This document shows positions 1,933 through 31,500 of a stretch of DNA of 64,000 nt, piece after piece. This DNA comes from an uncultured Isosphaeraceae bacterium. GTDB taxonomy: Bacteria > Planctomycetota > Planctomycetia > Isosphaerales > Isosphaeraceae. Under the pieces are notes generated by a model. The model was not told the origin of the DNA. It saw nothing but the letters and a program-made list of their open reading frames with translations, and made no database searches. The position numbers and the translations under genes were made by a program. Position 1 is the stretch's first letter; each line of letters starts with the position of its first letter. The stretch spans positions 191,209 through 255,208 of the forward strand of contig CAWDZZ010000004.1 of assembly GCA_963806595.1 (NCBI GenBank), given 5' to 3'.

Positions 1933-4679
1933 TCAATCTCTATCTTGGATCCGGATGGTGACCGGGTACTGCGCAGCGGGTCCCACTTGAAGCTCGAGCC
2001 GGCTGCCGCTTGAGCCGGTGGTGAACTTCGCGGGCAAGCCTTCGACCGCGATGCGTCCCGAGAGGCCGGAGAGCTGCATGGTCGTGGTGTGGGTGTCTCC
2101 CGAGCGGTTCTCCAGCGTGAAGCGAATTTCGCGCAAGGACGGGTCGATTCGGATCGGCTGGTCGGCGGCGAAACCGTCGCGATCGAGGATCAGGTGGAGT
2201 CGTCGCTCGCCGCGCACGACGTGCAGACGCTGTCGCAGGCCGTCCTTCGGGGTGACGGCGATGCCTTCGGGGGTTTCGGCGAGGTGGCCGCCGTAAGCGA
2301 TCGAGCCGAAGATCGGGTCGTCGGCGACGATCGTGGCGGCCGTGCGCAGGGCGCCGCAATAGCCCAGGTCTATCTCGCAGCCGTAGTACCAGGAGCCGCG
2401 CGGGTGCGACTTGCGCAGCCAGCTTGTCGCCCAGGCGCGAGGCTCGAAGCCGCCGCCGGCCGCACCGTCGTTTTCCTTGCCGGGATACCAATACCCGTAA
2501 TGCGATTCCGGCGTGCCGCTGTTCACAAGGGCCCAGGAGCTGAGGTAGGACGCGTAGCCCAGCCGGAGATAGTCGGCCGGCTGCCTGGCATAGTGCAATG
2601 CGTAATCGAGCACGCTCCAGCCGCCCATCTGGGACATGTAGCTAAGCGTGTAGCTGCCCCCCATCCCGGCGCGATAGTCGCTGCCGAGCAGATAGTACGC
2701 GGTTTCCAACCAACCGCGGTCCACGACGTTGGCCCGGATTTGTTTCTCCAGGAAGCGGTGGGCGGCATCACGGGTTATGGAGGCTCCGTCGGCCGCGGCG
2801 CCGCGTCGGGCCGTTCATCCGCTGGAGGGCCCACCGGGCCAGGGCGTGGGTCGATTCGAACCCCGTCGAGTCGAACGCGTACTCGGAGCCGAAAAGATAG
2901 GGGTCGTCGTTGACGAAATGGGCGACTTTCTTCTCCCAGTGGCCTCGCAGCTCCTGGGCCTGCTCGGTCTTTCCATTCTCCGTTAGCGCGTCGATCAACT
3001 CCGGGATGACGACTTCGTTGTACGTGCCGGTCGCGTAGGCCGACCAGCGCCGGATGGCCATGGGCACGGTGAAGAAGGCGCGGGCCGTGCCGAAGGCGCG
3101 CTCGAGATAGGCGTCGGCGGTCAGCTCGGTCTTGATTCCGTTATAGAGCCGGGCGATCTGGTACATCCGGTAATAGAGCAAGATGATGTGCGGGTAGTCG
3201 TAGATCCTCCACAGGTGCTGCCGGCCGTTAGGGCCGGGGTCCTTGCTCTCACGGTTGGTCTTCCAGTTGGGAATGCCGTAGATCGCGTAGGGAAAAGGAT
3301 CGGCCTCGGTGCACTGGAGTCCGCCCCAGACATAATGGTGGATGTAATAGTCGATGGCTGAAACTTCACGCTGATCGGGATATGAGACATTCTTGGAGGC
3401 GACGTAGGGCGCCTTGCACAGACCAGGATCGTCGCAGGCGACGATGTAGGCATTGAGGCCGTCGGCGTCGTCGGGACTGCGGAGGACCTGCTTGCGCTGG
3501 TCCCACTCTGAGAACAGGCCGTTGTACCACCTGGATGGATCGCGGTGCTGCTGATGGCTGACCAGGAAGCTCGCTCGCTTCTTGATCAGGGTTTCCAGCG
3601 GCTCGGTGACGAAGAACTCGAGAACAGCCGATTTCTTGCCCGCGTATCGGATCGTCAGCATATTCTCCCCCAGCCGGGAGAAGGTGACCTTGTAGATGTG
3701 GTTGTCCTGGCCGCGGGTGCCGAGATCCTCGATCCCGGTCTGATGGGGGAATTCGGCGGTGAGTGAGTCGATAGGATTCCGGGTGTGCAGGGAGATCAAA
3801 GCCGGGAGATCGGTCGGGACGGTCATGCCGGGAACGACGTTCACGTCCAAGAGATTCTCCGCGTAGAGGATGCTGCGGACGTCGGCATAATCTTCACCCC
3901 ATCGGCACTTGAAGCCATAGCTCGTGCGGTCGCCGGGCCGGCCACGGGGCGCGAGGGTGACTCCGGTATGTGCTTGCCGCCAGTTGCCGCCGCGGTCGCG
4001 GGCCCGAGCCCCGCGCCAGCCGAATGGAGAAACAGGCTCCAGGCGCGTCCGCCGCCGGAGCTGGGTATCCGCGTCGAAGTACTCGAGTCGCGTGTCGTCC
4101 ACGGGCGTGATGACCAGGTAGGGTCCGACGCTATTGGGGCGCATCAGGAAGAGGAACGAGCCGTGGCCGGAAATCCAGAAGTGGAGAATCTGCCGCTTGG
4201 TCTCGGTGGTCGTCTTATCCTGGGAGAAGCGCGTGTTGAAGGGCGTGGGGAATGCCAGGTCGGCGATTTCGAGCGGTGCCGCCGCCGAGGTTGCCCAGCG
4301 CGATGGTCCAGAGCAGCTCGCGGCTCTGGAGGGTAAACGACTCGATCAGCTCCAGGTCGGAATCGATCGTATACGTGATTTGATAGCCCGGCCGGTCCTT
4401 CGCGGCGTCGACGCGGGCGCTCGTGCCAGTCAGGCTGGAGGTTCGTACCGTCGTCCAGTCGCCGCCCGTTCGGCGATAGCCGATCACCAGCGTTCCCAGG
4501 AACTTGCCGTCCTGGATGTAGTCGGTGTCGAAGGCATCGTGGACGTGCTTGAGGCCAGCGATGCCACCCTTGCCGAGAGTCAGCGAGAACTGATCGTTGG
4601 CCAGTCGTTCCTGGCCGAATATTTCGGTCCAGGAGCCGAGGAAGACCAGAACCAACGCGACGCGCGCTGCGGATTTCAT
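1933..4679 (-). CDS. Large secreted hypothetical protein of about 900 aa with an N-terminal signal peptide (MKSAARVALVLVFLGSW...). ORF pieces 4215-4679, 2768-4144 and 1933-2724 are joined across two apparent 1-nt frameshifts near 4240 and 2800.
   Basis: Long ORFs with continuous plausible sequence across the frame changes. The translation of the alternative frame continues directly into the next ORF at both junctions. No family recognised. Confidence 0.55.
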
Positions 4680-5678: not shown

Positions 5679-8087
5679 TTGGGTCTCGCGCGGCCAGCCG
5701 GCGCTCCCAGATGCCGACATAGGCCGCCTCCAGGTCGCGGGCCAACCGCTCGGCGTCCATCAGTGGAGAGCGACTCATTCGCTCGCGTAATCCGGAGCGT
5801 AGATCGGCCAGGCGCGCGAGGTCGCCGGCCAGTGCGGTTGCGATCCGCACGTAGTCTTCGGGCGTCTGTGCGAGCAGCTCGTCCAGGCCGACGGTCCGCA
5901 GGAACCGGACTCCCTGGCGCGAGACGTTCATATGGCCGGACTGGCTGATCACGGGCACCCCCATCCACAGGGCATCACACGTGGTGGTCACGCCATTGTA
6001 AGGAAACGGGTCAAAGGCGATGTCCACGGCGTGGTACAGCTCGAGGTAGGCGAACCGGGTCGCCGTCGGTCCGGCGAAGAACAGCCGCTCGGGGGCGATG
6101 CCGCAGGCCGTGAGGAGGTCACGGATCCGTTCCTCGGCCGAGAGACCGGCCCCGGTGCGGAGCAAAAGGCGGGAGCCGGGAACAGCCGCCAGCGCACGCG
6201 ACCAGACGGCCAGGACTTCGTCCGAGACCTTGGCCGGGTTGTTCAAGCAACCGAAGGTGACGTGGCCGGACTGCCGGGCCGGCGGCTCGGGTCGGACCTC
6301 CGGCGCGGGGCCGGGTGCGTAACAGAGCACGCACTCGGGCAAGCGGATGAGCGACTCCTGGTAGTGTGCCTCCGACAGGCCCGGGGGGTCGGCGTGAGCG
6401 TCCGTGATGTAGTAGTCCATGGCCGAGAGGCCGGTCGTCCCCAGGTAGCCCAGGTAGGACACCTGGATGGGTGCCGGGTTGCGGGCGAATGCCCGTAGCC
6501 GGTTCCCGCCCGTATGACCGGCCAGGTCGACCAGGATCTCGATGTCGTCCTGGCGGATCCGCTCGGCGGCCCGCGCGTCGGAGAGCCCGACCAGCGATCG
6601 CCAGCAGTCGGCGTAGCCCTGGAGGCGTCGCGTGAAGGCATCGGGTCGCGAGACGTCGGCGTAGCAGAAGATCTCGAAGCGATGATGGTCATGGGCGGCG
6701 AGGATCGGCTCCAGGAAGGAGACGACGGGGTGCTCGCGGAAGTCGGACGAGACGTAGCCGATCCGCAGGCGTCGCTCGGCCGGGGACCGGGTCGGGCGCG
6801 GCTCGCACGCTCCGGCCAGGGGTTCCGCGTGTTGACGAGCGTAACACCGAGCCTCGACGAGAATCTCCCGAGCGTCGGCGCCGGGCTGGTAGTGCATGGC
6901 CAGGAGCAGGTTGCTGTGGACGGGTGCGTCATCCGGCCGCGAGGCCAGGGCCTGGCGGTAGTAGGCGATGGCCTCGGCCGCTCGCCCCTGGTCCATGCAG
7001 GCATTCGCGAGATTGGTGAGCGCCCCAAAATGGTCGGGGTCGATCCGCACGGCGTGCTCGAAGGAAGCCAGGGCCCGATCGGGCTCGCCCTGGGCGCTGC
7101 ACGCCAGGCCAAGGTTGTTGCGGGCGTCCACCAGGTTCGGCTGGAGCTCGATCGCCCGCTCGAAGCGCAGCAACGCGTCCGCCGCCCGGCCCTGATTCAA
7201 GAGCGCCAGGCCGAGATTGTTGTGCACCTCGGCCAGGTCGGGTTCGAGGTAGAGCGCCTGCTCGAAACTGAGCCGCGCCTCCTCCAGTCGGTCCAGGGCC
7301 ATCAGGGCAAGCCCAATATTCGAGTACGCCCCGACGCAGTCCGGCCAGAGCCGGAGGGCCTGCTCGTAGCGGGCGACCGCCGCTTCGAGCTCGCCGCGAT
7401 CCATCAGCATGCCGGCCAGTTCGGCGAGCGGACCGGGGTCCTCGGGACGCAACCGCGCGGCCTGCTCATAGCAGGACACCGCCTCATCGTGCTGGCCGAG
7501 CCCGCGCAGTACGTGGCCCAGGTTGAGCCAAGCCTTATCGAGTTCGGGCTGGAGCTGGACGGCCCGGCGATAGCATTCGACAGCCTGATCGTACTCGCCC
7601 AGCATTGCCAAGGCGTCGCCCAGGCAGCGAGACGCCACTGGATCGTCGGGCTGAAGTGCGAGGGCGCGGCGGAAGCAGAGCGCGGCCCCATCGGGATCGC
7701 CCTGCCTGATCCGGACGATGCCCTGGTTGTGGTGCGCTTCGGGGTAGTCGGGCCGGAGTCGCGTGGCCGCACGCAAGCAGTCGAGCCCTCATCGAGCCGG
7801 CCCTGCTCCAAGAGCGCGACTCCGAGATCGTTAGAGAGGACCTCGTCCGCGGGGCGCAGCGCGAGGGCGCGACGCAAACTGGTCACGGCCTCATCGGGCC
7901 GTCCGAGGGCCTGGCAGACACGTCCGAGCCCCGCCCAGAGCTCGGCATCGCCGGGTTGGTTCTGGAGGGCCTGGCGGTAGAGCTGCTCGGCGTGGCCCAG
8001 GGCGCCGAAGCGATGGAAACGGGCGGCGAGAGCAGGAATGTCGGCTGGAGAGATCATAAGGGCGCCCGGCGCGGGCCTCCCGAGCAA
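5668..8087 (-). CDS. TPR-repeat glycosyltransferase of the GT41 family (O-GlcNAc-transferase/SPINDLY-like). There is one apparent frameshift near 7790, between ORFs 7404-8087 and 5668-7776.
   Basis: N-terminal TPR array followed by the characteristic GT41 C-terminal domain (RIGYVSSDFREHPV...LVDLAGHTGGNRL...YLGYLGTTG...). Confidence 0.8.
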
Positions 8088-11499: not shown

Positions 11500-12309
11500 G
11501 TGGGAGTGCACATCATGACGAATATGCTCTTGGTCGCGACGATGGTGTTGCTCACGCAAACGAAGGCGGCCGGCAAGGCAGACGATACGCTGGACCTCAT
11601 GAAGTCGGCCGCGTCTTCCTACACGTTCACCTTCGACAGCGAGGGGAGTGAGCCATTGCGGCTCCGGGACGAGCCGGCGTTTCGACTCGGCCGGCAGCCG
11701 GCCGACAACCTGATGGACGGCGCGATTTTCTTATGGCTTGACGAACTGGGTCGCCCGACGGTGGCCGCGCAAATCTTCGCATGGAAGGATCAAGGGACCG
11801 AGTGGAACTGGCGGCACGAGTTCATGTCGCTCGCGACCGGGAGCTTGCGGGGCGAGCGCACGGGCCGAGCCGGCTGGTCTCCTCGCCGGGGGGGTGTCGA
11901 GTTCCGCGCGGTGCCAGGCGCTCCTGAGCCCGCCGATTCGCATCGCGTGCGCACCAGCCAGATGAAAGCGATCGCTCGGGAATTTCGATGCTCTGACCAC
12001 TTCAAAAACAAAGAGTGGGTCGAGCTCCGCTTGCTGCCGACTCCGATCGCGACCTACGGCAAGGCCGGGACAAAACTCGTCGATGGCGCACTCTTTGCCC
12101 TGGCGATGGGCACGGACCCGGAGGCCTGCCTGTTCGTCGAAGTTCGCGAGGGCGCGCACGGACCCGAATGGCAGTACGCATTCGCGCCGCTGACGTGCTA
12201 CGAGCTGAAGGCGACCCATCGAGAAAAGCCGGTTTGGTCTAGCCCGTTTCACGACCCGGGCCGGTCCGACGACCCGTCCGAGCAATATTTTAACGTTCCA
12301 GTGCGTTAA
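11500..12309 (+). CDS. Hypothetical secreted protein; the signal-like segment MTNMLLVATMVLLTQTKAAG suggests the true start is at the internal Met.
   Basis: Intact 269-aa ORF ending in TAA. No recognisable domain. Confidence 0.5.
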   Translation: MGVHIMTNMLLVATMVLLTQTKAAGKADDTLDLMKSAASSYTFTFDSEGSEPLRLRDEPAFRLGRQPADNLMDGAIFLWLDELGRPTVAAQIFAWKDQGTEWNWRHEFMSLATGSLRGERTGRAGWSPRRGGVEFRAVPGAPEPADSHRVRTSQMKAIAREFRCSDHFKNKEWVELRLLPTPIATYGKAGTKLVDGALFALAMGTDPEACLFVEVREGAHGPEWQYAFAPLTCYELKATHREKPVWSSPFHDPGRSDDPSEQYFNVPVR

Positions 12310-12479
12310 CTCGCGCGGCCAGCGATCCTTTGACGGGGCTCGTCGCGGAGATTCGCGCGCATCGACGCCGCCCTATCGGCTTTGGCGAGATCGCGGTCTC
12401 TTCAACGATTTTCGGCTCGAGCGTCAAGATGGATTTGCCACGGCGATGCCGGCTTCGATGATGCGGCATTGCATGACGG

Positions 12480-12556
12480 TTCGATGCCAACAAAGGTACC
12501 TGACACCTTTAACAGGTACGCAAGATGCCAACAATGGTACCTGACACCGTTTTCCG
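12480..12556 (+). repeat. Two tandem copies of the conserved element 'GCCAACAA(A/T)GGTACCTGACACC(T/G)TT'.
   Basis: Direct sequence identity with copies at ~22.60 kb and ~30.62 kb. The spacer between the two copies contains 'CAGGTACG', which is the reverse complement of the 'GTACCTG' inside the element. Confidence 0.7.
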
Positions 12557-12566
12557 GCCACTTATT

Positions 12567-13083
12567 GGCTTGACCATGCTCGCGGGTACAATCCTGGGCG
12601 CGCTCGTCTTGGCCTGGCGCCGGGGATTTGCTTTTGGGCGCCTGGTTCGATGCTTGCTGGGGGCGATTATTGGGGGCGGACTGGGGGCTGCTCCTGGCGC
12701 TATGTGGCTGTTGTTCGCCGTGGTCGCCTCGGCTTCCGGAGCTGGTGCCCTGCCCGCCTCTCCAGGCGCACGTTTGCGTTTTGGGGAGCGCAGCGGGAGC
12801 GGTGGCCGGTCTACGAATGGCGGACCGTTCCATGTTCGGGACGGGGCGAGGCGGAAAGGTGGCAGCGCTCGCCCTGGCAGGGTTCATGACAGGAGTTGCA
12901 CTCAGCTTCTTCGCTTTGCTGCTTGTGCAAGATTCCTGGGCGGAGATATGGTGGCTGGTCCTCGCCCCGCTGGCAACCGTCGCAACCACAATCGGCGGCT
13001 ACTCCCTGCGAGCGCGTGGGTGTGAGAATTCCCCAGAAAACATGCTTCCGTGTGATACGGGCCAATTGGGCCCTACGGCTTGA
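12567..13083 (+). CDS. Small glycine-zipper membrane protein with a probable frameshift. The ORF start annotated at 12525 is simply the translation of the repeat element.
   Basis: Hydrophobic Gly/Ala-rich segments in ORFs 12525-13025 and 12628-13083. Confidence 0.3.
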
Positions 13084-19209: not shown

Positions 19210-22200
19210 GCGGCGATGAGTCGTCGCGCACTGAGCGGCGGCTGGCCGACGCAATGGCCGCCTTTGACGATGGGCTGGCCGCCGGCCGCGAGATATCGAC
19301 GGATGGGCTTGGCGAGTCTGTCGACCCCGATCTCTTGCCCGAGTGGGAGCGGCTCGCGGCTTTCTTGACCCTCGTCGAGCAAGCCTGGCCCCGCGATGCC
19401 GCCCACGCGGATCGCCGGACGGAGCCGGCCGCTGCGGGGCCAGTCGAGCATCCAGCGGACGCAGACACGGGGCCACCCCGATGCCGCAAGCTCCCCTCGA
19501 TTCGGCCGTTTCCAGATCCGGCGGACGCTGGGGCAAGGGGGCTTCGGGATTGTGTTCCTCGCCTGGGACCCGGCGCTGCGGCGGGAAGTCGCGCTCAAGG
19601 TCCCGCAGCCCGAGACCCTGGTCACGCCCGAGGCGCGGAAGCGGTTCCTCCGCGAGGCGCACGCCGCCGCGACTCTGGACCACCCCAACATCGTTCCGGT
19701 GTACGAGAGCGGCAGCGTCGGCACCGTCGCCTATATCGCATCGGCTTACTGCCCTGGGCCGACGCTCGCGGGCTGGCTGGCGCGGCAGTCTCGGCCGGTG
19801 CCGGCACGAGACGCGGTGAATCTGATCGCGAAGCTCGCCCGAGCCGTCGAACATGCCCACGAGCGCGGCGTTGTTCACCGCGACCTCAAGCCCAGCAATG
19901 TATCTGCTGCAACGGCCTGGAGGCGGATGGCGACCGCACGGCGAACCAGTCTCTTTCCGGATTTCAGCCGCGGATCACCGATTTCAGCCTGGCCTGGCTC
20001 GCCGACGGCCAAGGGCCGAAAACTCGGAGCGGTGTTCCGATTGGCTCACCTCCTTACATGGCCCCCGAACAGGCCGAGGGACGGCTCAAGGCGATCGGCC
20101 CGCCGACCGATGTCTACGGGCTGGGGTGCATTCTCTACGAGCTCTTGACCGTGCGTCCTCCCTTCCGAGGCGAGAGTCAGCTTGAAATCCTGAAGCAAGT
20201 CATCGCGGACGACCCAATCCCACCCCGGAGACTTCGGAAGGACATCCCCATCGACGTCGAGTCGATCGTCCTGAAATGCCTGGAGAAGGACCCGGCTCGG
20301 CGATACTCAACCGCAGGCGCACTGGCCGATGACCTCGACCGGTTTCTGGCCGGCGAGCCGACGAAGGCCCGGCCGCCCGGCCGTGGGAAAAGATCAGGTG
20401 CGTGGCGAAGCGGCACCCCGCGGCGAGTGTGATCGCGACGCTCGCGGTCCTCTTTGCGGGGACGCTGCTGGCAGCCAAACATTCGTTCGAGAACCGTTTA
20501 AACGATGCCGAGCACGCTTCCCATTTGCTGGAAGCACGCGTCGGAGATCACGCGTTGGCTGCGCACCGGGCTCAGTATGTCGCAGATATCCGGCAGGCGG
20601 CCCAATTGTTGCGTAGCCCCGAGAGGAACCTGGCGACCGACTTGCTCGAGCGGAACCGCCCGCGACCAGGCGAGACGGAGATACGGGGATTCGCCTGGTA
20701 TTTCCTGAGGGGCCTTTGCAACACGGAGCGGCTTAGCCTGTTCGGTCATCGCGGCGAAGTCTACCATGCCGAGTTCTCGCCCGACGGCCGGCTCCTGGCG
20801 TCTTCCGGCCAGGACGGCACGGTCCGTATCTGGGATCCCACGACGGGGTCGTTGATCCGTGAGATCCGGGCTCATGAATCCGACGTGAACTGGGTCGCAT
20901 TCGCGCCCAACGGGAAGACTCTGGCCACGACGAGCGATGATGGAAGCGTCAAGCTCTGGGAGACAGAGACTGGATTGAATCGTCTCGAACTGCCGGCCCA
21001 TCGCGGGATTGCCTTGATCGTGCTGTTCACGCCGGATGGCAAGTACGTGATCTCCTGCGGACGCGACGATGGCGACGTCAAGATCTGGGATGCCATCACT
21101 GGACTGGCGCGCGGCTCTTTCCATGCCGGCGATTCGGTCTTGGAGAACATGGCCCTTTCGCCCGATGGGTCGATCCTGGCCGTGGTGGGCGGATCCGGCA
21201 TCGCCGGGCTATGGGATCTCGCGAGCCGGCGATGTCTGACGCGTCTGGACCACGAGCGAACCGCGGTGACAGGCGTCGCCTTCTCGCACGATGGCAAAAT
21301 GGCCGCGACGGGAGCCGCGGATGAAGTCGTGCGGCTCTGGGAGGTGCGCGGGGGCCGTTTCCTGCGAGAGTTCTCCGGGCACGCCGACGATGTGCAATCG
21401 GTCGCGTTCACGCCCGACGACAAGACGCTCGTCTCGGCGGGGAACGACAATACCGTCCGGCTCTGGGACGTGGTCAAGGGCGATCCTCGAGCCGTGCACG
21501 TGGGCCACAGCGGCCGCATCTGGGGTGTCTCAATCTCGCCCGACGCGCGGACGATCGCCTCCGCCAGCCGCGATGGTACCGTCAAGCTCTGGGATTCCCT
21601 GCCGAGCGATGCCGGTACTCGCATCTTGGCGACGGATAAACTCGTGGCGCCTCTCCTTCTCGGCCGACGGCCGAACCCTGATCGCCGCAGGGGCCGATGG
21701 GCTCATCTCGAGCTGGGATGTGGAGTCGGGACATCTCCTGGATCCCGTGCGCGTCTCCGACAACGGCGCTCCGGTCGAGGTTGTCCTCAGTCGAGATGGC
21801 GGCGTAGCGGCGGTCAGGACGAAGGATGGCTTCATCGAGATTCATGACCTTGTGCTCCACCGTCGCTTGAACACGATCGGTCCCGTCGCAGGGAGTGGCA
21901 TCTCGATCGAGCTCGATCTCGACGGAGGTCGCCTGGCCGTGACCGTCGGGGGGAATGGCGTGTCGCTCTGGGAGAGCACGGGAACGATACCCTTTGCCTT
22001 CCTCGGCGGTGACATTGGTCGAGCTGTGATTGATCCCAACGGTGAAATCCGCTGTAGCGCGGACGGCGGAGCGAAACTGATCATCTGGAATCCGGCCGAC
22101 GGTCAAACGCGCGAAGGCTACGGTTTCGATTGGCGATCGTACCATTTTGCATGCTTCTCCCCTGATGGATCCACCTTCGCGTATTCCCATCGCGATTTCG

Positions 22201-22536
22201 TCTTCCTCTGGAAAGGTGACTCGCTGCAACCGTTCGCGGAACTTCACATGCCCAGAGAATCGATCCAGGCGATGGCGTTCTCGCCCGACGGAAAAGTGCT
22301 CGCCTGCGGAGACGAGCGCAGGACCAGTGAAGCTCTGGCAGATTGACACGCTCGAGGAGGTGCTCACGCTCAAGCCGTCAGGGGATCCAGTCCGCCTGCT
22401 GAGCTTCTCACCGAACGGCAAGATCCTGGCTGCTTGCACCGAGCGGTCCAACGGCACGTCAGAGATCCACCTCTGGCGCACGGCGGCGGATGACGTAGCG
22501 CCGGCAACTGGACCGGAGGGGACGCGATCGCCCTGA
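19206..22536 (+). CDS. Ser/Thr protein kinase with a transmembrane helix and C-terminal WD40 beta-propeller repeats; interrupted by at least six apparent frameshifts.
   Basis: Kinase motifs (GQGGFGIVFLA, HRDLKPSNV, ITDFSLAWLADG, YMAPEQ), then 'RWAKRHPAASVIATLAVLFAGTLL', then many 'SPDG..LA..S.DGTV.LWD' WD40 units. The sequence moves between frames 3, 1, 3, 2, 3 and 1. Confidence 0.8.
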
Positions 22537-22597: not shown

Positions 22598-22640
22598 GAG
22601 GACCTGAACAATGGTACCTGACACCTTTTTCAGTACGTCC
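22598..22640 (+). repeat. Single copy of the conserved element 'GAACAATGGTACCTGACACCTTTTT'.
   Basis: Identical core to the copies at 12.5 kb and 30.6 kb. It lies between the end of the kinase at 22536 and the formate dehydrogenase operon. Confidence 0.7.
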
Positions 22641-22751: not shown

Positions 22752-25700
22752 ATGACGATGTTCAAATTACCGATCGTGGCCCGCTCGCAACCGTCGCAAC
22801 CACAGACCCAGCCGTTCAGCCCGCAGACGGCGGAGAAGACCTCACGGTTGCGTGGTGCTACCGTCACGGAAGGGCTGTGTCCGTACTGCGCCGTCGGCTG
22901 TAGCCAGCTCATTTACACCAAGCGCGGCCAGCTCATCGATATCGAGGGAGACCCGCGCAGCCCGATCAACGAGGGCACACTATGCCCCAAGGGTTCAAAC
23001 GCGTTACTCCTGGCCGTCAACCCGCACCGCGTGAAGACCGTCCGCTACCGGGCTCCCTACTCCGAATAAATGGGAGACCCGAACCCTCGACTGGGCACTC
23101 GATCAGATCGCTCTCCGCGTCAAAGCGGCACGGGACGCCGACTTCACGGCGAAGGACCAAGAAGGTCGCATGCTGAACTCAGTGCGGAACATGGGGACCC
23201 TCGGCGGCGCGACGCTCAACATCGAAGACAACTATCTGATCAAGAAGTTGTTCTGCGGTGGTCTGGAGTTGTCTCGATCGAAAACCAGGCACGAACTTGA
23301 CACTCCGCTTCGGTGCCCGGTCTGGGCGCCTCGCTTGGCCGCGGCGCGGCCACCAATTACCAGCAGGATCTGCCGAATAGCGATTGCATCTTGATCATGG
23401 GCTCGAACATGGCCGAGGCCCATCCCGTGGGTTTCCGATGGCCCATGAAGGCCAAGGAGGCGCGGCGCAACATTGATCCACGTGGACCCGCACTTTTCGC
23501 GCACGTCGGCGCACTGCGACCTCTATGTCCCGATTCGGACCGGCACCGACATCGCGTTTCTCGGCGGCATCATTCACCATATCCTGACCCATGACCGCTG
23601 GTTCAAGGAATATGTCCTGGCATACACCAATGCGTCGAACCTGATCCAGGAGGGCTTCCAGGACACCGAGGACCTGGACGGCCTGTTCAGTGGCTACGAC
23701 CCAGATACCGGCACCTATGACGCCGTGAAGGGACACTGGGTGTACGGCGCTCGGCCGGCAGCCAAGACGGTCCGGACGGGCCGGTGGAGGAGGGTCGGGC
23801 CGACCCGTCCGCGCCGCGAGAGGCTGAGAGCGAGTCCCGCAAAGGGGTTCACGGTTATGCCATCGATGGCGGGGCCACCACGAATGCCGCGGCGCGTTCG
23901 GAAACGTCGCCCAAGCCCAATGGTCGCCCGGTGCGCGACCCAACCCTGCAGCACCCCCGTTGCGTCTTCCAGATCCTCAAACGCCACTTCTCTCGATATA
24001 CGCCGGAGACAGTATCCCAGGTGTGCGGGTGCCCGGCTGATGAGATCATTCGGGTTGCCGAGCTGCTCTGTGCCAACTCTGGTCGTGACCGGACGAGCGT
24101 TCTGGTCTACGCTGTGGGCTGGACCCAGCATACGACCGGCGCCCAGATCATCCGCACGGGGGGCATCCTGCAACTTTTGCTGGGCAACATCGGTCGCCCC
24201 GGTGGTGGGATCCTGGCGCATGCGCGGCCATTCCAGCATCCAGGGCTCGACGGACGTCGCGACGTTGTATGACCTGCTGCCTGGCTATCTCCCTCAGCCC
24301 ACGGTTGACAGAGTCCACGAGACGCTGGATTCCTACGTCGCGCACCAAGGTTTGGCCACCGGGTACTGGTCCCACTTCCGCGAATTCGCCGTCAGCCTGC
24401 TCAAGGCGTGGTACGGGGACGCCGCCGGACCCGCGAACGACTACCATTTCGACTGGCTGCCGCGCATTGATGGCGACCATTCGCAACTGCCAACCTTCAA
24501 CCGCATGTCACGGGGCGAGCTCAAAGGCTACTTCCTCTTCGGCCAGAACCCGGGCGGCGGCGGCATCAACGCGGGGCTGCACCGCGCAGGCCTGCGTAAC
24601 CTCGAATGGCTGGTGGTGCTCGACTGGTTCGAGACCGAAAGCGCCGTCTTCTGGAAGAGCGACCCGAACGGGCCGCCGCCATCCGACATCAAGACCGAGG
24701 TTTTCTTGATCCCCGCCGCGGCGAACCCGGAGAACGACGGAACGCTGACTAACACGCAACGGCTGCTTCAATGGCACTCAAAGGCGATCGACCCGCCCGA
24801 GGATTGCCGCTCCGATTCCTGGTTCGTCTACAACCTCGGGAAGCGGCTCCGCCAGCTCTACGCCGGCTCGACCGATCCCAAGGATCAGCCACTGCTTTCT
24901 CTCACCTGGGACTACGACTACGACTCACCGGCGCGGCTTCCCGACGGCTCAATGAGCCGCATCGAGGGGGATGTGGACGCCGAAAAAATCCTGATGGAGA
25001 TGAACGGCTGCAAGCTCGATGAGACCGACCCGCGGACCGGTCGGCCGCGCCTCTTGACCGGCTTCTCGGAACTGAAGGGAGACGGCACGACGGCATGCGG
25101 CGTCTGGATCTACAGCGGCGTCACGCCCGAGCCCGGTCGCAACCGGGCCCGCGAGCGCAGGCGACAGATAATCCGATTCATCCGGAATGGGGATTTGCCT
25201 GGCCGGACAACCGCCGCGTGCTTTTCAACCGCGCCTCGGCCGATCCCGATGGCCGGCCTTGGTCGGAGCGGAAAAAGCTCATCTGGTGGGATGCCGAAAA
25301 GCGCCTCTGGGTGGGACTCGACCGGCCGGACTTCGAGCCGGACAAGCCCCCCGACTATCGCCCTCCGCCCGGTGCGACCGGCATGGCTGCGATCGCCGGC
25401 AACGAGCCGTTCATCATGAAGCCCGACGGCGTCGGCTGGCTCTTCGCCCCCAGTGGCGCCAAGGACGGCCCATTGCCGGCGCACTACGAGCCGCTCGAGT
25501 CGCCGGTCGGCAACTTGCTCTACCCCAGGCAAGCCATGTACACCCGGGCGTGCGCACGTTCCCGGGACCACTGAACCGGCTGGCGCGCGCGTCCCGAGAC
25601 CGAGTACCCGGTGGTGGCCACCACCTACCGTCTCACCGAGCACTACCTGAGCGGGCCGATGAGCCGGTTCAACTCATGGCTCAACGAATTGCAGCCGGAG

Positions 25701-30580: not shown

Positions 30581-30614
30581 GAAAGGAGTATGGAATTCAG
30601 ATTAGCGCACAGGT

Positions 30615-30680
30615 ACGAAGAATGCCAACAACGGTACCTGACACCTTTTTCAGCAACGGTACCTGACACCTTTTTCTCAG
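30615..30680 (+). repeat. Two tandem copies of 'CAACGGTACCTGACACCTTTTT', preceded by 'CAGGTACGAAGAATGCCAACAA'.
   Basis: Direct repeats three nucleotides apart. Same core as the copies at 12.5 kb and 22.6 kb. Confidence 0.7.
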
Positions 30681-31500
30681 GGTACCACCAGATTGGACTG
30701 TTGCTGCGCGATCTGGATGCGGACGATCGCGCCGCTGTTGAACGCCAGGAAATCGCGCTCGATTCCGTCGGAGAAGATGACTCCGCCTTCGGGCATGGAC
30801 GATTGCACGACCAGCTCGTGGGATGGATCCAGAACGCCGGCCACCAGATTGATCTGCGAGTGCTTGCTCTTGAAGGGCTCGCGCACTACCCAGATGAGCT
30901 TGCGATCATCCCACTTCACGGTGAAGCCGGGCGGGGTCTTTGATCCCAGGAAGCTCGCCACGCCCGACGCCATGTTGAATACCGAGGAAAGCCAGCCCGT
31001 CGAGCCCGCGCCCGTCGAGACGATGATACCGCTCGAGGATTGCTGCTCCGTCCGCCCCGCGTGCTGGATACCGTAACGCGCCGAAACATGGCTGCGCTTC
31101 CGATGAACAGCTCATTGAACGCCAGCATGCGCTGGCCGTCGTTGAGCAAAGCCTCTGCCAGCGTGACGTGCCGTGACTTGTGCGTCCGCTTCAAGACGCT
31201 GCGCACGGCCTGGCGCGCGTTCGAGACCTTGAAGGGAAGGAGGATCCCATCGAAACGCGCCGGGTCGGGATTGACGCCCACGATCGGCACGTCTTGCACG
31301 TACTTGGCGACGTTTGCCACCATCCCGTCTTGACCCAGGACAACGACGACCTGGCTCAGGCCAAAATCAAACGTCGGAACATACTTCCGGTGCACGAACT
31401 GAATGCGTTCCTCCTCCTTGAGGTCGCGCTCCAACGTAGCCAGTGCCGTGCGGTAGGCTTTGTCTTCGTCTTCCAGCTCGCTGTAGTCGTCGGCCGCATC
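30677..31500 (-). CDS. NAD kinase / diacylglycerol-kinase-fold protein (NadK-like), with one apparent frameshift near 31070. The N-terminal limit is uncertain.
   Basis: 'VVVVLGQDGMVANVAKYV' (GGDG-like), 'NELFI', and 'GIIVSTGAGSTGWLSSV' (DGxxxSTxxGSTAY-like). Confidence 0.55.

Follow-up and report, generated by a model that had tools for sequence, protein, structure and literature searches.

A short hairpin-forming repeat of an Isosphaeraceae contig, probably a REP-like terminal repeat of TIRtron-type Y1 transposase genes

A stretch of 64,000 nucleotides (nt) from an uncultured Isosphaeraceae bacterium (Planctomycetota; assembly GCA_963806595.1, contig CAWDZZ010000004.1, positions 191,209 to 255,208), hereafter the window, contains the 13-mer GGTACCTGACACC exactly five times, on the plus strand only and in three intergenic loci (12495-12507, 12536-12548, 22613-22625, 30633-30645 and 30658-30670). 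The five elements are very probably solo and tandem copies of a REP-like (repetitive extragenic palindromic) repeat, namely the terminal inverted repeat of a TIRtron, a unit whose transposase gene has been called TIRYT, TnpA_Y1 subclass 2.1 or Bertels group 1. The repeat is thus of a known selfish or domesticated kind, ordinary in its nature, and a dedicated terminator or regulatory site, as proposed in the initial annotation, is not supported. That annotation was right in reporting five near-identical copies at three loci: in dinucleotide-preserving shuffles of the window (G+C ~64%), with up to two mismatches allowed, the mean number of matches was 0.94 and five were reached in 0 of 100. The same five sites, and nothing else, were recovered with the 9-mer CCTGACACC and with other shorter or degenerate patterns, and the longer form GCCAACAANGGTACCTGACACC is exact in three copies and has three mismatches in the remaining two.

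The identification depends on loci in other genomes, drawn in two ways. A motif-first sample was obtained by scanning 185,579 species genomes with AANGGTACCTGACACC, giving at least 120 loci; all counts from this sample are among the matches listed. In one of these loci, from Candidatus Yanofskybacteria (L062), two inverted copies 725 bp apart bracket an open reading frame (ORF) of 224 amino acids that matches the Pfam family Y1_Tnp ('Transposase IS200 like', E = 2e-17). A tblastn search with this protein over the 120 listed loci found a homologue adjoining the element in L031, L036, L008, L092, L042, L010, L105, L080, L107 and L112, and in part in L106. The geometry is stereotyped in the motif-first loci, with a reverse copy 17-80 nt before the start codon and a forward copy directly after the stop codon or overlapping it; repeats flanking Y1 genes were located at -32 to -116 nt upstream and at 0 to +33 nt, or over the stop codon, downstream. 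Several of the Y1 ORFs end in ...GGT ACC TGA (L092, L112, L171, L197 and L191 among them), so the repeat supplies their last two codons and the stop codon.

The protein-first sample comprises 80 metagenome loci picked by protein homology alone (43-80% identity). About 33 of the 80 carry the core, with at most two mismatches, in the same inverted geometry, and nearly all of the others with enough flanking sequence carry related inverted repeats of 15-34 nt, including AAAGGTTCCTGACACCTTTT, AATGGTGGCTGACCCCATT, AAAAGACTCCCGACCCCTTTT and AAATGGACCTGTCCCCTTT. Both flanks of one gene always vary jointly, for example GGTGCCAGGAACC with GGTTCCTGGCACC, and transposases of the same core class are on average more alike (62% identity) than those of different classes (51%; Mann-Whitney p = 8e-28). 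The class that has the core of the window spans 44-90% protein identity. The ten bases directly 3' of the transposase stop codon in L122 (...TAG followed directly by AATGCCAAAACGGTCCCTGACACC) are the same as the left flank of the fourth window copy, AGAATGCCAA, a match that connects the copies of the window with the right-hand end of the transposase unit in a planctomycete clade.

The protein partner belongs to the HUH/Y1 superfamily, as judged from its HUH motif, its tyrosine and a modelled IS200-like fold. It is 222-230 amino acids long, with the motifs NH[WY]H, YQ and YVERN[AP] and a helical tail at residues 167-212; the HUH histidines H60 and H62 and the catalytic Y122 (the tyrosine of RYVERN) are invariant. 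The best NCBIfam family is 'REP-associated tyrosine transposase' (RayT, NF047646), at 31-66 bits, under the cut-off of 80 bits. By sequence, the sole match in the PDB (E up to 0.01) is 4ER8, the E. coli TnpA_REP bound to a REP hairpin, and a Foldseek search of the PDB with the AlphaFold model of protein P0001 (pLDDT 86, pTM 0.84) likewise placed 4er8_A first (E = 5e-8, target TM 0.72), followed by the transposases of ISDra2 and IS608. At E up to 1e-10 the family exceeds 7,600 members, for which the best label is 'putative transposase'.

Among systems already described, the closest is that of the TIRtrons or TIRYTs, RAYT-like (REP-associated tyrosine transposase) genes with terminal inverted repeats in place of GTAG REPs (Di Nocera et al. 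2013, PMC3733652). Many TIRtron repeats share the motif GGGGWSAS, and some constitute moderately abundant families found in dimers or clusters; an acidobacterial TIRYT group is sharply defined, and a 'plethora' of tyrosine transposase genes, together with matching flanking repeats, was described in R. baltica (PMC3733652). TIRYTs have been equated with TnpA_Y1 subclass 2.1 and with Bertels group 1 (Quentin et al. 2018, PMC6006769), and 16-mers flanking group 1 RAYT genes were found to number about 12 per replicon (Bertels et al. 2017, PMC5581495). The present system resembles the TIRtrons in having a Y1/HUH gene of about 220-230 codons with a C-terminal tail, inverted repeats at a fixed short distance, a 3' repeat that often overlaps the end of the ORF, further copies that are dispersed, in dimers and in clusters, and hosts that include the named carriers Acidobacteria and R. 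baltica. Read on the other strand, the core contains GGTGTCAG, which agrees with GGGGWSAS at 7 of 8 positions, and the sister variants GGGGTCAG and GGGGACAG fit it exactly. Unlike the TIRtron repeats, the core is self-complementary at its A-tract and T-tract flanks, forming a small hairpin, and it is identical over three phyla though the enzymes are 44-60% identical. The published traits of subclass 2.1 are a median length of 238 amino acids, a conserved C-terminal tail, and the motifs NHVH or NH[YF]H, W[EQ] or FQ, and Y[IV]HLNP or YIELNP, which the signatures NH[WY]H, YQ and YVERN[AP] resemble and do not equal.

The REP/RAYT system of E. coli and Pseudomonas is similar in that the repeat is short, extragenic, palindromic and multi-copy, occurs singly, in tandem and in inverted pairs, and prefers gene 3' ends; in the related loci, not in the window, inverted copies flank the cognate Y1 gene, enzyme and repeat co-vary, and the closest solved structure of the enzyme is TnpA_REP. 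It differs in that no GTAG or GTGG is present at either foot in an alignment of 110 copies, the feet being A- and T-tracts; in that invariance is seen in the loop and the upper stem, where REPs have it in foot and stem; in a much weaker stem; in the scores below the RayT cut-off; and in a core shared between phyla, REPs being as a rule confined to one species or genus. A separate TnpA_Y1 class 3, described in Planctomycetes and Acidobacteria, has weak hairpins with CnGA at their foot (PMC6006769). It shares host phyla, weak atypical hairpins and the CnGA tetranucleotide (CTGA in the loop here) with the present family; its motifs NHVH, W[TA] and YV[VI][AENY]EQ differ from the NH[WY]H, YQ and YVERN[AP] found here.

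The insertion sequences (IS) of the IS200/IS605 group, such as IS608 and ISDra2, share the catalytic fold and the HUH and tyrosine chemistry of the present enzymes, and by analogy small single-stranded DNA hairpins would be recognised in both cases. The copies might accordingly be taken for the ends or footprints of an active IS200/IS605-type element or of miniature inverted-repeat transposable elements derived from it, with solo copies as remnants, rather than for a domesticated REP system. The repeats do bracket a gene, and truncated transposase genes adjoin copies in L010, L106 and L167. This explanation is nonetheless quite improbable: IS200/IS605 ends are subterminal hairpins on one strand, whereas the flanks here are inverted; IS elements are multi-copy units, often with tnpB, whereas here the repeat far outnumbers the gene, with transposases absent within 8 kb in about 105 of the 120 listed motif-first loci and solo copies abundant in several metagenome-assembled genomes (MAGs); and clusters of the protein are mostly found on one or two contigs.

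The search of related genomes that the initial annotation had proposed shows that the element is not confined to this genome: the same core recurs in Planctomycetota, Acidobacteriota and Patescibacteria. By record title, the 120 listed loci comprise 47 of Planctomycetota, 18 of Patescibacteria, 15 of Acidobacteriota, 4 of unclassified 'bacterium' MAGs and 36 others. By our arithmetic, a pattern of 15 bases applied to both strands of 596 Gb is expected to yield about 1,100 matches by chance, and therefore singletons in scattered taxa carry no meaning; multi-copy loci, among the matches listed, are almost wholly in the three phyla named. The consensus of 150 copies, again among the matches listed, is (A)AAA-N-GGTACCTGACACC-N'-TTT(T), often with a C-rich stretch after it. 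Copies occur singly, in direct tandems with periods of 30-66 nt, and in inverted pairs of both arrangements, like REP/BIME elements, and single MAGs may hold many solo copies, for example bin78 (L024, L028, L030, L060 and L075) and ZJ5.bin40 (L022, L046, L054, L109 and L118). Viral contigs gave 15 single matches, none of them with the A-tract and T-tract flanks, and these look like chance matches in coding DNA. Rfam returned nothing at its gathering score in the whole window and nothing covering the element in 18 carrier loci, a permissive Rfam scan of the first locus gave matches at chance level, and a full-text literature search with the exact sequence and its sub-strings found nothing but unrelated primers.

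The conserved structure was evaluated on 110 copies, comprising the five of the window and one from each locus, after removal by eye of chance-looking matches in unrelated taxa. It is a hairpin, AAnGGT/ACCn'TT, with a loop of 7 nt, ACCTGAC. When the helix AAA-N-GGT/ACC-N'-TTT and three outer pairs are considered, 76.6% of cells are paired, compared with 47-57% after sliding of the partners. The covariation score of 0.125, against 0.084 in shuffles, was reached by 0 of 500 shuffles, and the N/N' pair takes the forms A-T, G-C, C-G and T-A. The loop and the stem top GGT/ACC are nearly invariant. The 21-mer consensus folds as DNA at -3.7 kcal/mol, and the RNA folds of the window copies range from -1.2 to -4.0 kcal/mol.

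Several observations weigh against the proposed identity. N and N' are unpaired in about one third of the copies, including three of the five in the window, and the hairpin is weak for this reason. No Y1 transposase gene is present within the 64-kb window; the cognate enzyme is therefore putative for this organism, and the copies could be relics or may have been mobilised in trans by an enzyme encoded outside the window. REP-like sequences have been reported to be missing from subclass 2.1 (Quentin et al. 2018, PMC6006769), and the candidate assignment of the present protein to that subclass was made from its length, its tail and a partial resemblance of motifs, rather than with the models of those authors. 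The activity of enzyme upon repeat in this clade is deduced from homology, and the repeat lacks the GT[AG]G foot that is canonical in REPs.

Positions were assessed with crude longest-ORF gene calls, leaving out the transposase-bearing loci and counting as credible a copy in which the core is followed by N'TT. T-tailed copies lie mostly outside long ORFs and chance-like matches mostly inside them. The initial description of a genuine non-coding, hairpin-capable repeat is borne out. Of the credible intergenic copies, 18 are co-directional with flanking genes and on the same strand, 13 are co-directional and on the opposite strand, 19 are in convergent and 4 in divergent intergenic regions, and the nearest stop codon is at a median distance of about 50 nt. 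Copies thus sit near gene 3' ends without preference for a strand, as REPs do, and the bias towards gene ends that was expected from the window holds across genomes (19 convergent, 31 co-directional and 4 divergent). In 53 loci, no association was found between the orientation of copies and local GC skew, which served as a proxy for the lagging-strand template (Fisher p = 1.0).

Several features would suit a Rho-independent terminator or a stabiliser of 3' untranslated regions: convergent and co-directional regions are favoured over divergent ones, a run of T follows the core, inverted pairs such as that in L096 would form long perfect hairpins flanked by runs of A and T, and an influence of REPs on mRNA 3' ends is established in E. 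coli (PMC3733652). That this is the primary role of the element is nevertheless unlikely. The conserved hairpin of the window copies is too weak, as given above, and none of the five copies was found by a simple terminator scan, which gave 14 hits in total where 13.3 were expected by chance. Orientation to the upstream gene is unbiased (18 same against 13 opposite), and an identical 13-nt core in three phyla together with a fixed geometry around a transposase gene would not be expected of a terminator. The stronger hairpin to which the terminator proposal had referred, between CAGGTAC and GTACCTG, is real in so far as the two halves are complementary and pair in the folds, at about -9.7 kcal/mol. 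It exists at only two of the five copies, has a loop of 17 nt and a gap of 5 nt between stem and T-run, and is not the conserved hairpin.

A further alternative, in which the element is the operator of a transcription factor recognising the GGTACC palindrome or the inverted repeat of A-tract and T-tract, for example in control of fdh, is the least probable of all and can be regarded as highly improbable. Its attractions are the palindromic features and the location of one copy 122 nt upstream of an fdhA-type ORF. It is contradicted by the depletion of copies from divergent, promoter-bearing regions, by the position of the third locus of the window between convergent ORFs and by the lack of relation among the neighbouring genes of different loci; neither conservation upstream of orthologous operons nor a co-occurring regulator was seen. 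The idea of an fdh regulator was dropped because a related contig (L201, with an FdhA fragment 83% identical) has an fdh cluster and no copy of the element in 21 kb. The suggestion of a protein-binding site at the GGTACC palindrome may be correct as regards recognition by a protein; by analogy with characterised relatives, that protein would be the Y1 transposase and not a regulator. Other candidates were rejected: a sigma-54 or sigma-70 promoter (scan at chance level, with no site at the copies), an integron attC or dif/Xer site (unsuitable arms and spacer), a mimic of an anticodon loop or of the 16S 3' end (superficial resemblance only) and a CRISPR array (no spacers of regular length).

The copies of the window, with their local additions, are as follows.
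Copy 1, 12486-12510, plus strand: GCCAACAA-A-GGTACCTGACACC-T-TT.
Hairpin of copy 1, plus strand: AAAGGT (12492-12497) with ACCTTT (12505-12510), loop ACCTGAC; RNA fold of -4.0 kcal/mol, present in the DNA minimum-free-energy fold.
Copy 2, composite unit, 12513-12553, plus strand: half CAGGTAC (12513-12519), a 15-nt spacer with GATGCCAACAA, core 12536-12548, then GTTTT.
Copy 3, solo, 22607-22630, plus strand: AACAA-T-GGTACCTGACACC-T-TTTT.
Copy 4, composite unit, 30610-30650, plus strand: half CAGGTAC (30610-30616), spacer GAAGAATGCCAACAA, core 30633-30645, then TTTTT.
Copy 5, 30653-30675, plus strand: 25-nt tandem duplicate of copy 4, CAACGGTACCTGACACCTTTTT.
Partial reverse half copy, 30677-30686, minus strand: TCAGGGTACC on the plus strand, pairing with GGTACCTGA of copy 5.

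Copy 2 is thus a tandem repeat placed 41 nt after copy 1. All five copies are on the plus strand, as had been reported, and this shared orientation is not significant (two-sided p ~0.25) because only three independent loci are concerned. The additional flank described at two of the loci, CAGGTACG(C/A)AAGA(A)TGCCAACAA, was found at 12513-12534 and 30610-30632, and its CAGGTAC is the reverse complement of the GTACCTG of the core. The local unit therefore exceeds the cross-phylum core, copies 2 and 4 each consisting of CAGGTACG, then 14-15 nt, then a full copy. CAGGTAC(G) stands 3' of copy 1, TCAGGGTACC 3' of copy 5, and in the folds the CAGGTAC half pairs with the GTACCTG of either copy 1 or copy 2. 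This pairing is that of a REPIN-like half-dimer, a genome-specific arrangement of a partial reverse copy beside a full copy, and differs from the conserved structure. The half copy TCAGGGTACC contains the stop codon (30677-30679) of the minus-strand ORF 30677-30973. Written out as an oligonucleotide, the element is GGGAAAAGGTACCTGACACCTTTTCCC.

A mechanism can be proposed by analogy with the E. coli TnpA_REP and the TnpA of IS608 and ISDra2. In single-stranded DNA, such as the lagging-strand template, the element would fold into its small hairpin; the Y1 enzyme would bind it, reading the invariant GGT-ACCTGAC-ACC top, and would cut and rejoin single strands there. Cutting and rejoining could give rise to new copies, tandem ones and truncated ones at places poor in genes, for the most part shortly after stop codons, where an insertion would be tolerated. 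Any effects on transcripts, such as stabilisation of 3' ends or weak termination, would then be a by-product, and the element may have such a secondary effect on mRNA 3' ends.

A peculiar feature of the family is the occurrence of stutter arrays, in which the right arm and tail are reiterated in truncated runs, often found after full copies and on the T-tract side only. Examples are GGTACCTGACACCTTTTCCTCC / CTGACACCTTTTCCTCC / ACCTTTTCCTCC in L027 and six CACCGTTTA units in L191, and further arrays are present in L032, L087, L114, L106, L031 and other loci. Next to 199 full copies, the right-hand partial repeats mostly retain CACC (11), CTGACACC (10) or CCTGACACC (9) of the core, and left-hand ones are rare. 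At transposase loci the arrays face away from the gene. They may have arisen as scars where the loop was cut and rejoined (C/CTGA/CACC, slashes marking the joints) or by replication slippage at the hairpin. It is conceivable, if rather doubtful, that the TIRYT or group 1 RAYT clade, so far described as devoid of REP-like sequences or as having low-copy flanking repeats only, maintains a true REP-like hairpin family, with a core frozen over Planctomycetota, Acidobacteriota and the reduced genomes of Patescibacteria while the enzyme diverged to about 45% identity, that the stutter arrays are scars of loop cleavage in vivo, and that the logic of the cut site is unlike that of the E. coli TnpA_REP. 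If this were true, truncated right arms starting C/CTGACACC or CTGA/CACC would mark cleavage and strand transfer within the hairpin loop.

What is mildly new in these observations is the exact conservation of a 13-nt core across three phyla, Patescibacteria included, the embedding of a stop codon in the repeat, and the polarity of the stutter arrays. Polar arrays may record the cut positions of the enzyme and offer direct, cheap hypotheses for testing biochemically how REP-like repeats spread, and the family gives clean access to a branch of the REP/RAYT world that has hardly been studied and extends to bacteria of the candidate phyla radiation. For annotation, a candidate regulatory element is removed, the copies become repeat or mobile-element features, and spurious small ORFs are explained. 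ORFs called mechanically across the copies of the window (12382-12573 and 30590-30943) encode the strings KVPDTF, YLTPFS and VPDTFF, and 'hypothetical proteins' of these phyla that contain such strings probably owe them to conceptual translation of the repeat.

The genes around the window copies are only partly as initially described. The plus-strand ORF ends at 12309, 22536 and 30580 were verified, and the statement that each locus lies just after one of them needs amendment: copy 1 is about 175 nt past the stop at 12309, and the third locus lies between convergent ORFs, of which the minus-strand partner is apparently the tail of a split NAD-kinase gene. Copy 3 is 71 nt past the stop of a WD40 ORF (22536). 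As reported, it precedes fdh: an fdhA-type ORF with a molybdopterin Fe4S4 domain begins downstream at 22752, 127 nt past the core and 122 nt past the whole unit of copy 3, and its nearest named FdhA relatives are from Isosphaeraceae and Gemmataceae.

Three genes of the window appear to be split by frameshifts, namely the WD40 gene (ORFs 21291-22346 and 22147-22536), the fdhA-type gene and the NAD-kinase-like gene (30916-31434 and 30677-30973), and the FdhA of contig L201 is likewise in four pieces, which suggests indel errors of long-read MAG assembly and not pseudogenes. The fdhA-type gene (22752-25419) gives a junk-like translation from codon 106 to about codon 165, counted from 22752. It also has an in-frame TGA at 23298-23300 (context IENQART-stop-HSASVPGLG), presumably comparable to the selenocysteine codon of formate dehydrogenases.

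Some of the other loci have features worth recording. A more distant Y1 protein (26% identity) encoded in L087 (1404-2345) has WQ and NP motifs like classical RAYTs and lies between the copies of another inverted repeat, GGGGACAGACGGAACGTT / AACGTTCCGTCTGTCCCC, an exact fit to GGGGWSAS; a copy of GGTACCTGACACC is located about 190 nt further downstream of this unit. In two Firmicutes loci, from Neobacillus (L038) and Anaerobium (L040), the 13-mer is one arm of a long, near-perfect hairpin, AAAGGTACCTGACACC...GGTGTCAGG(T/C)ACCTTT, which looks like an ordinary terminator and may be either a chance match or a related repeat. A gene for transfer-messenger RNA (3610-3969) is found about 170 nt from a tandem pair of copies (4142-4212) in L060, and a tRNA gene about 150 nt from a copy in L046, both possibly by coincidence. 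Finally, the acidobacterial locus L032 has a group II intron (D1-D4-6, 90 bits) at 7844-8000, about 4 kb from several copies.

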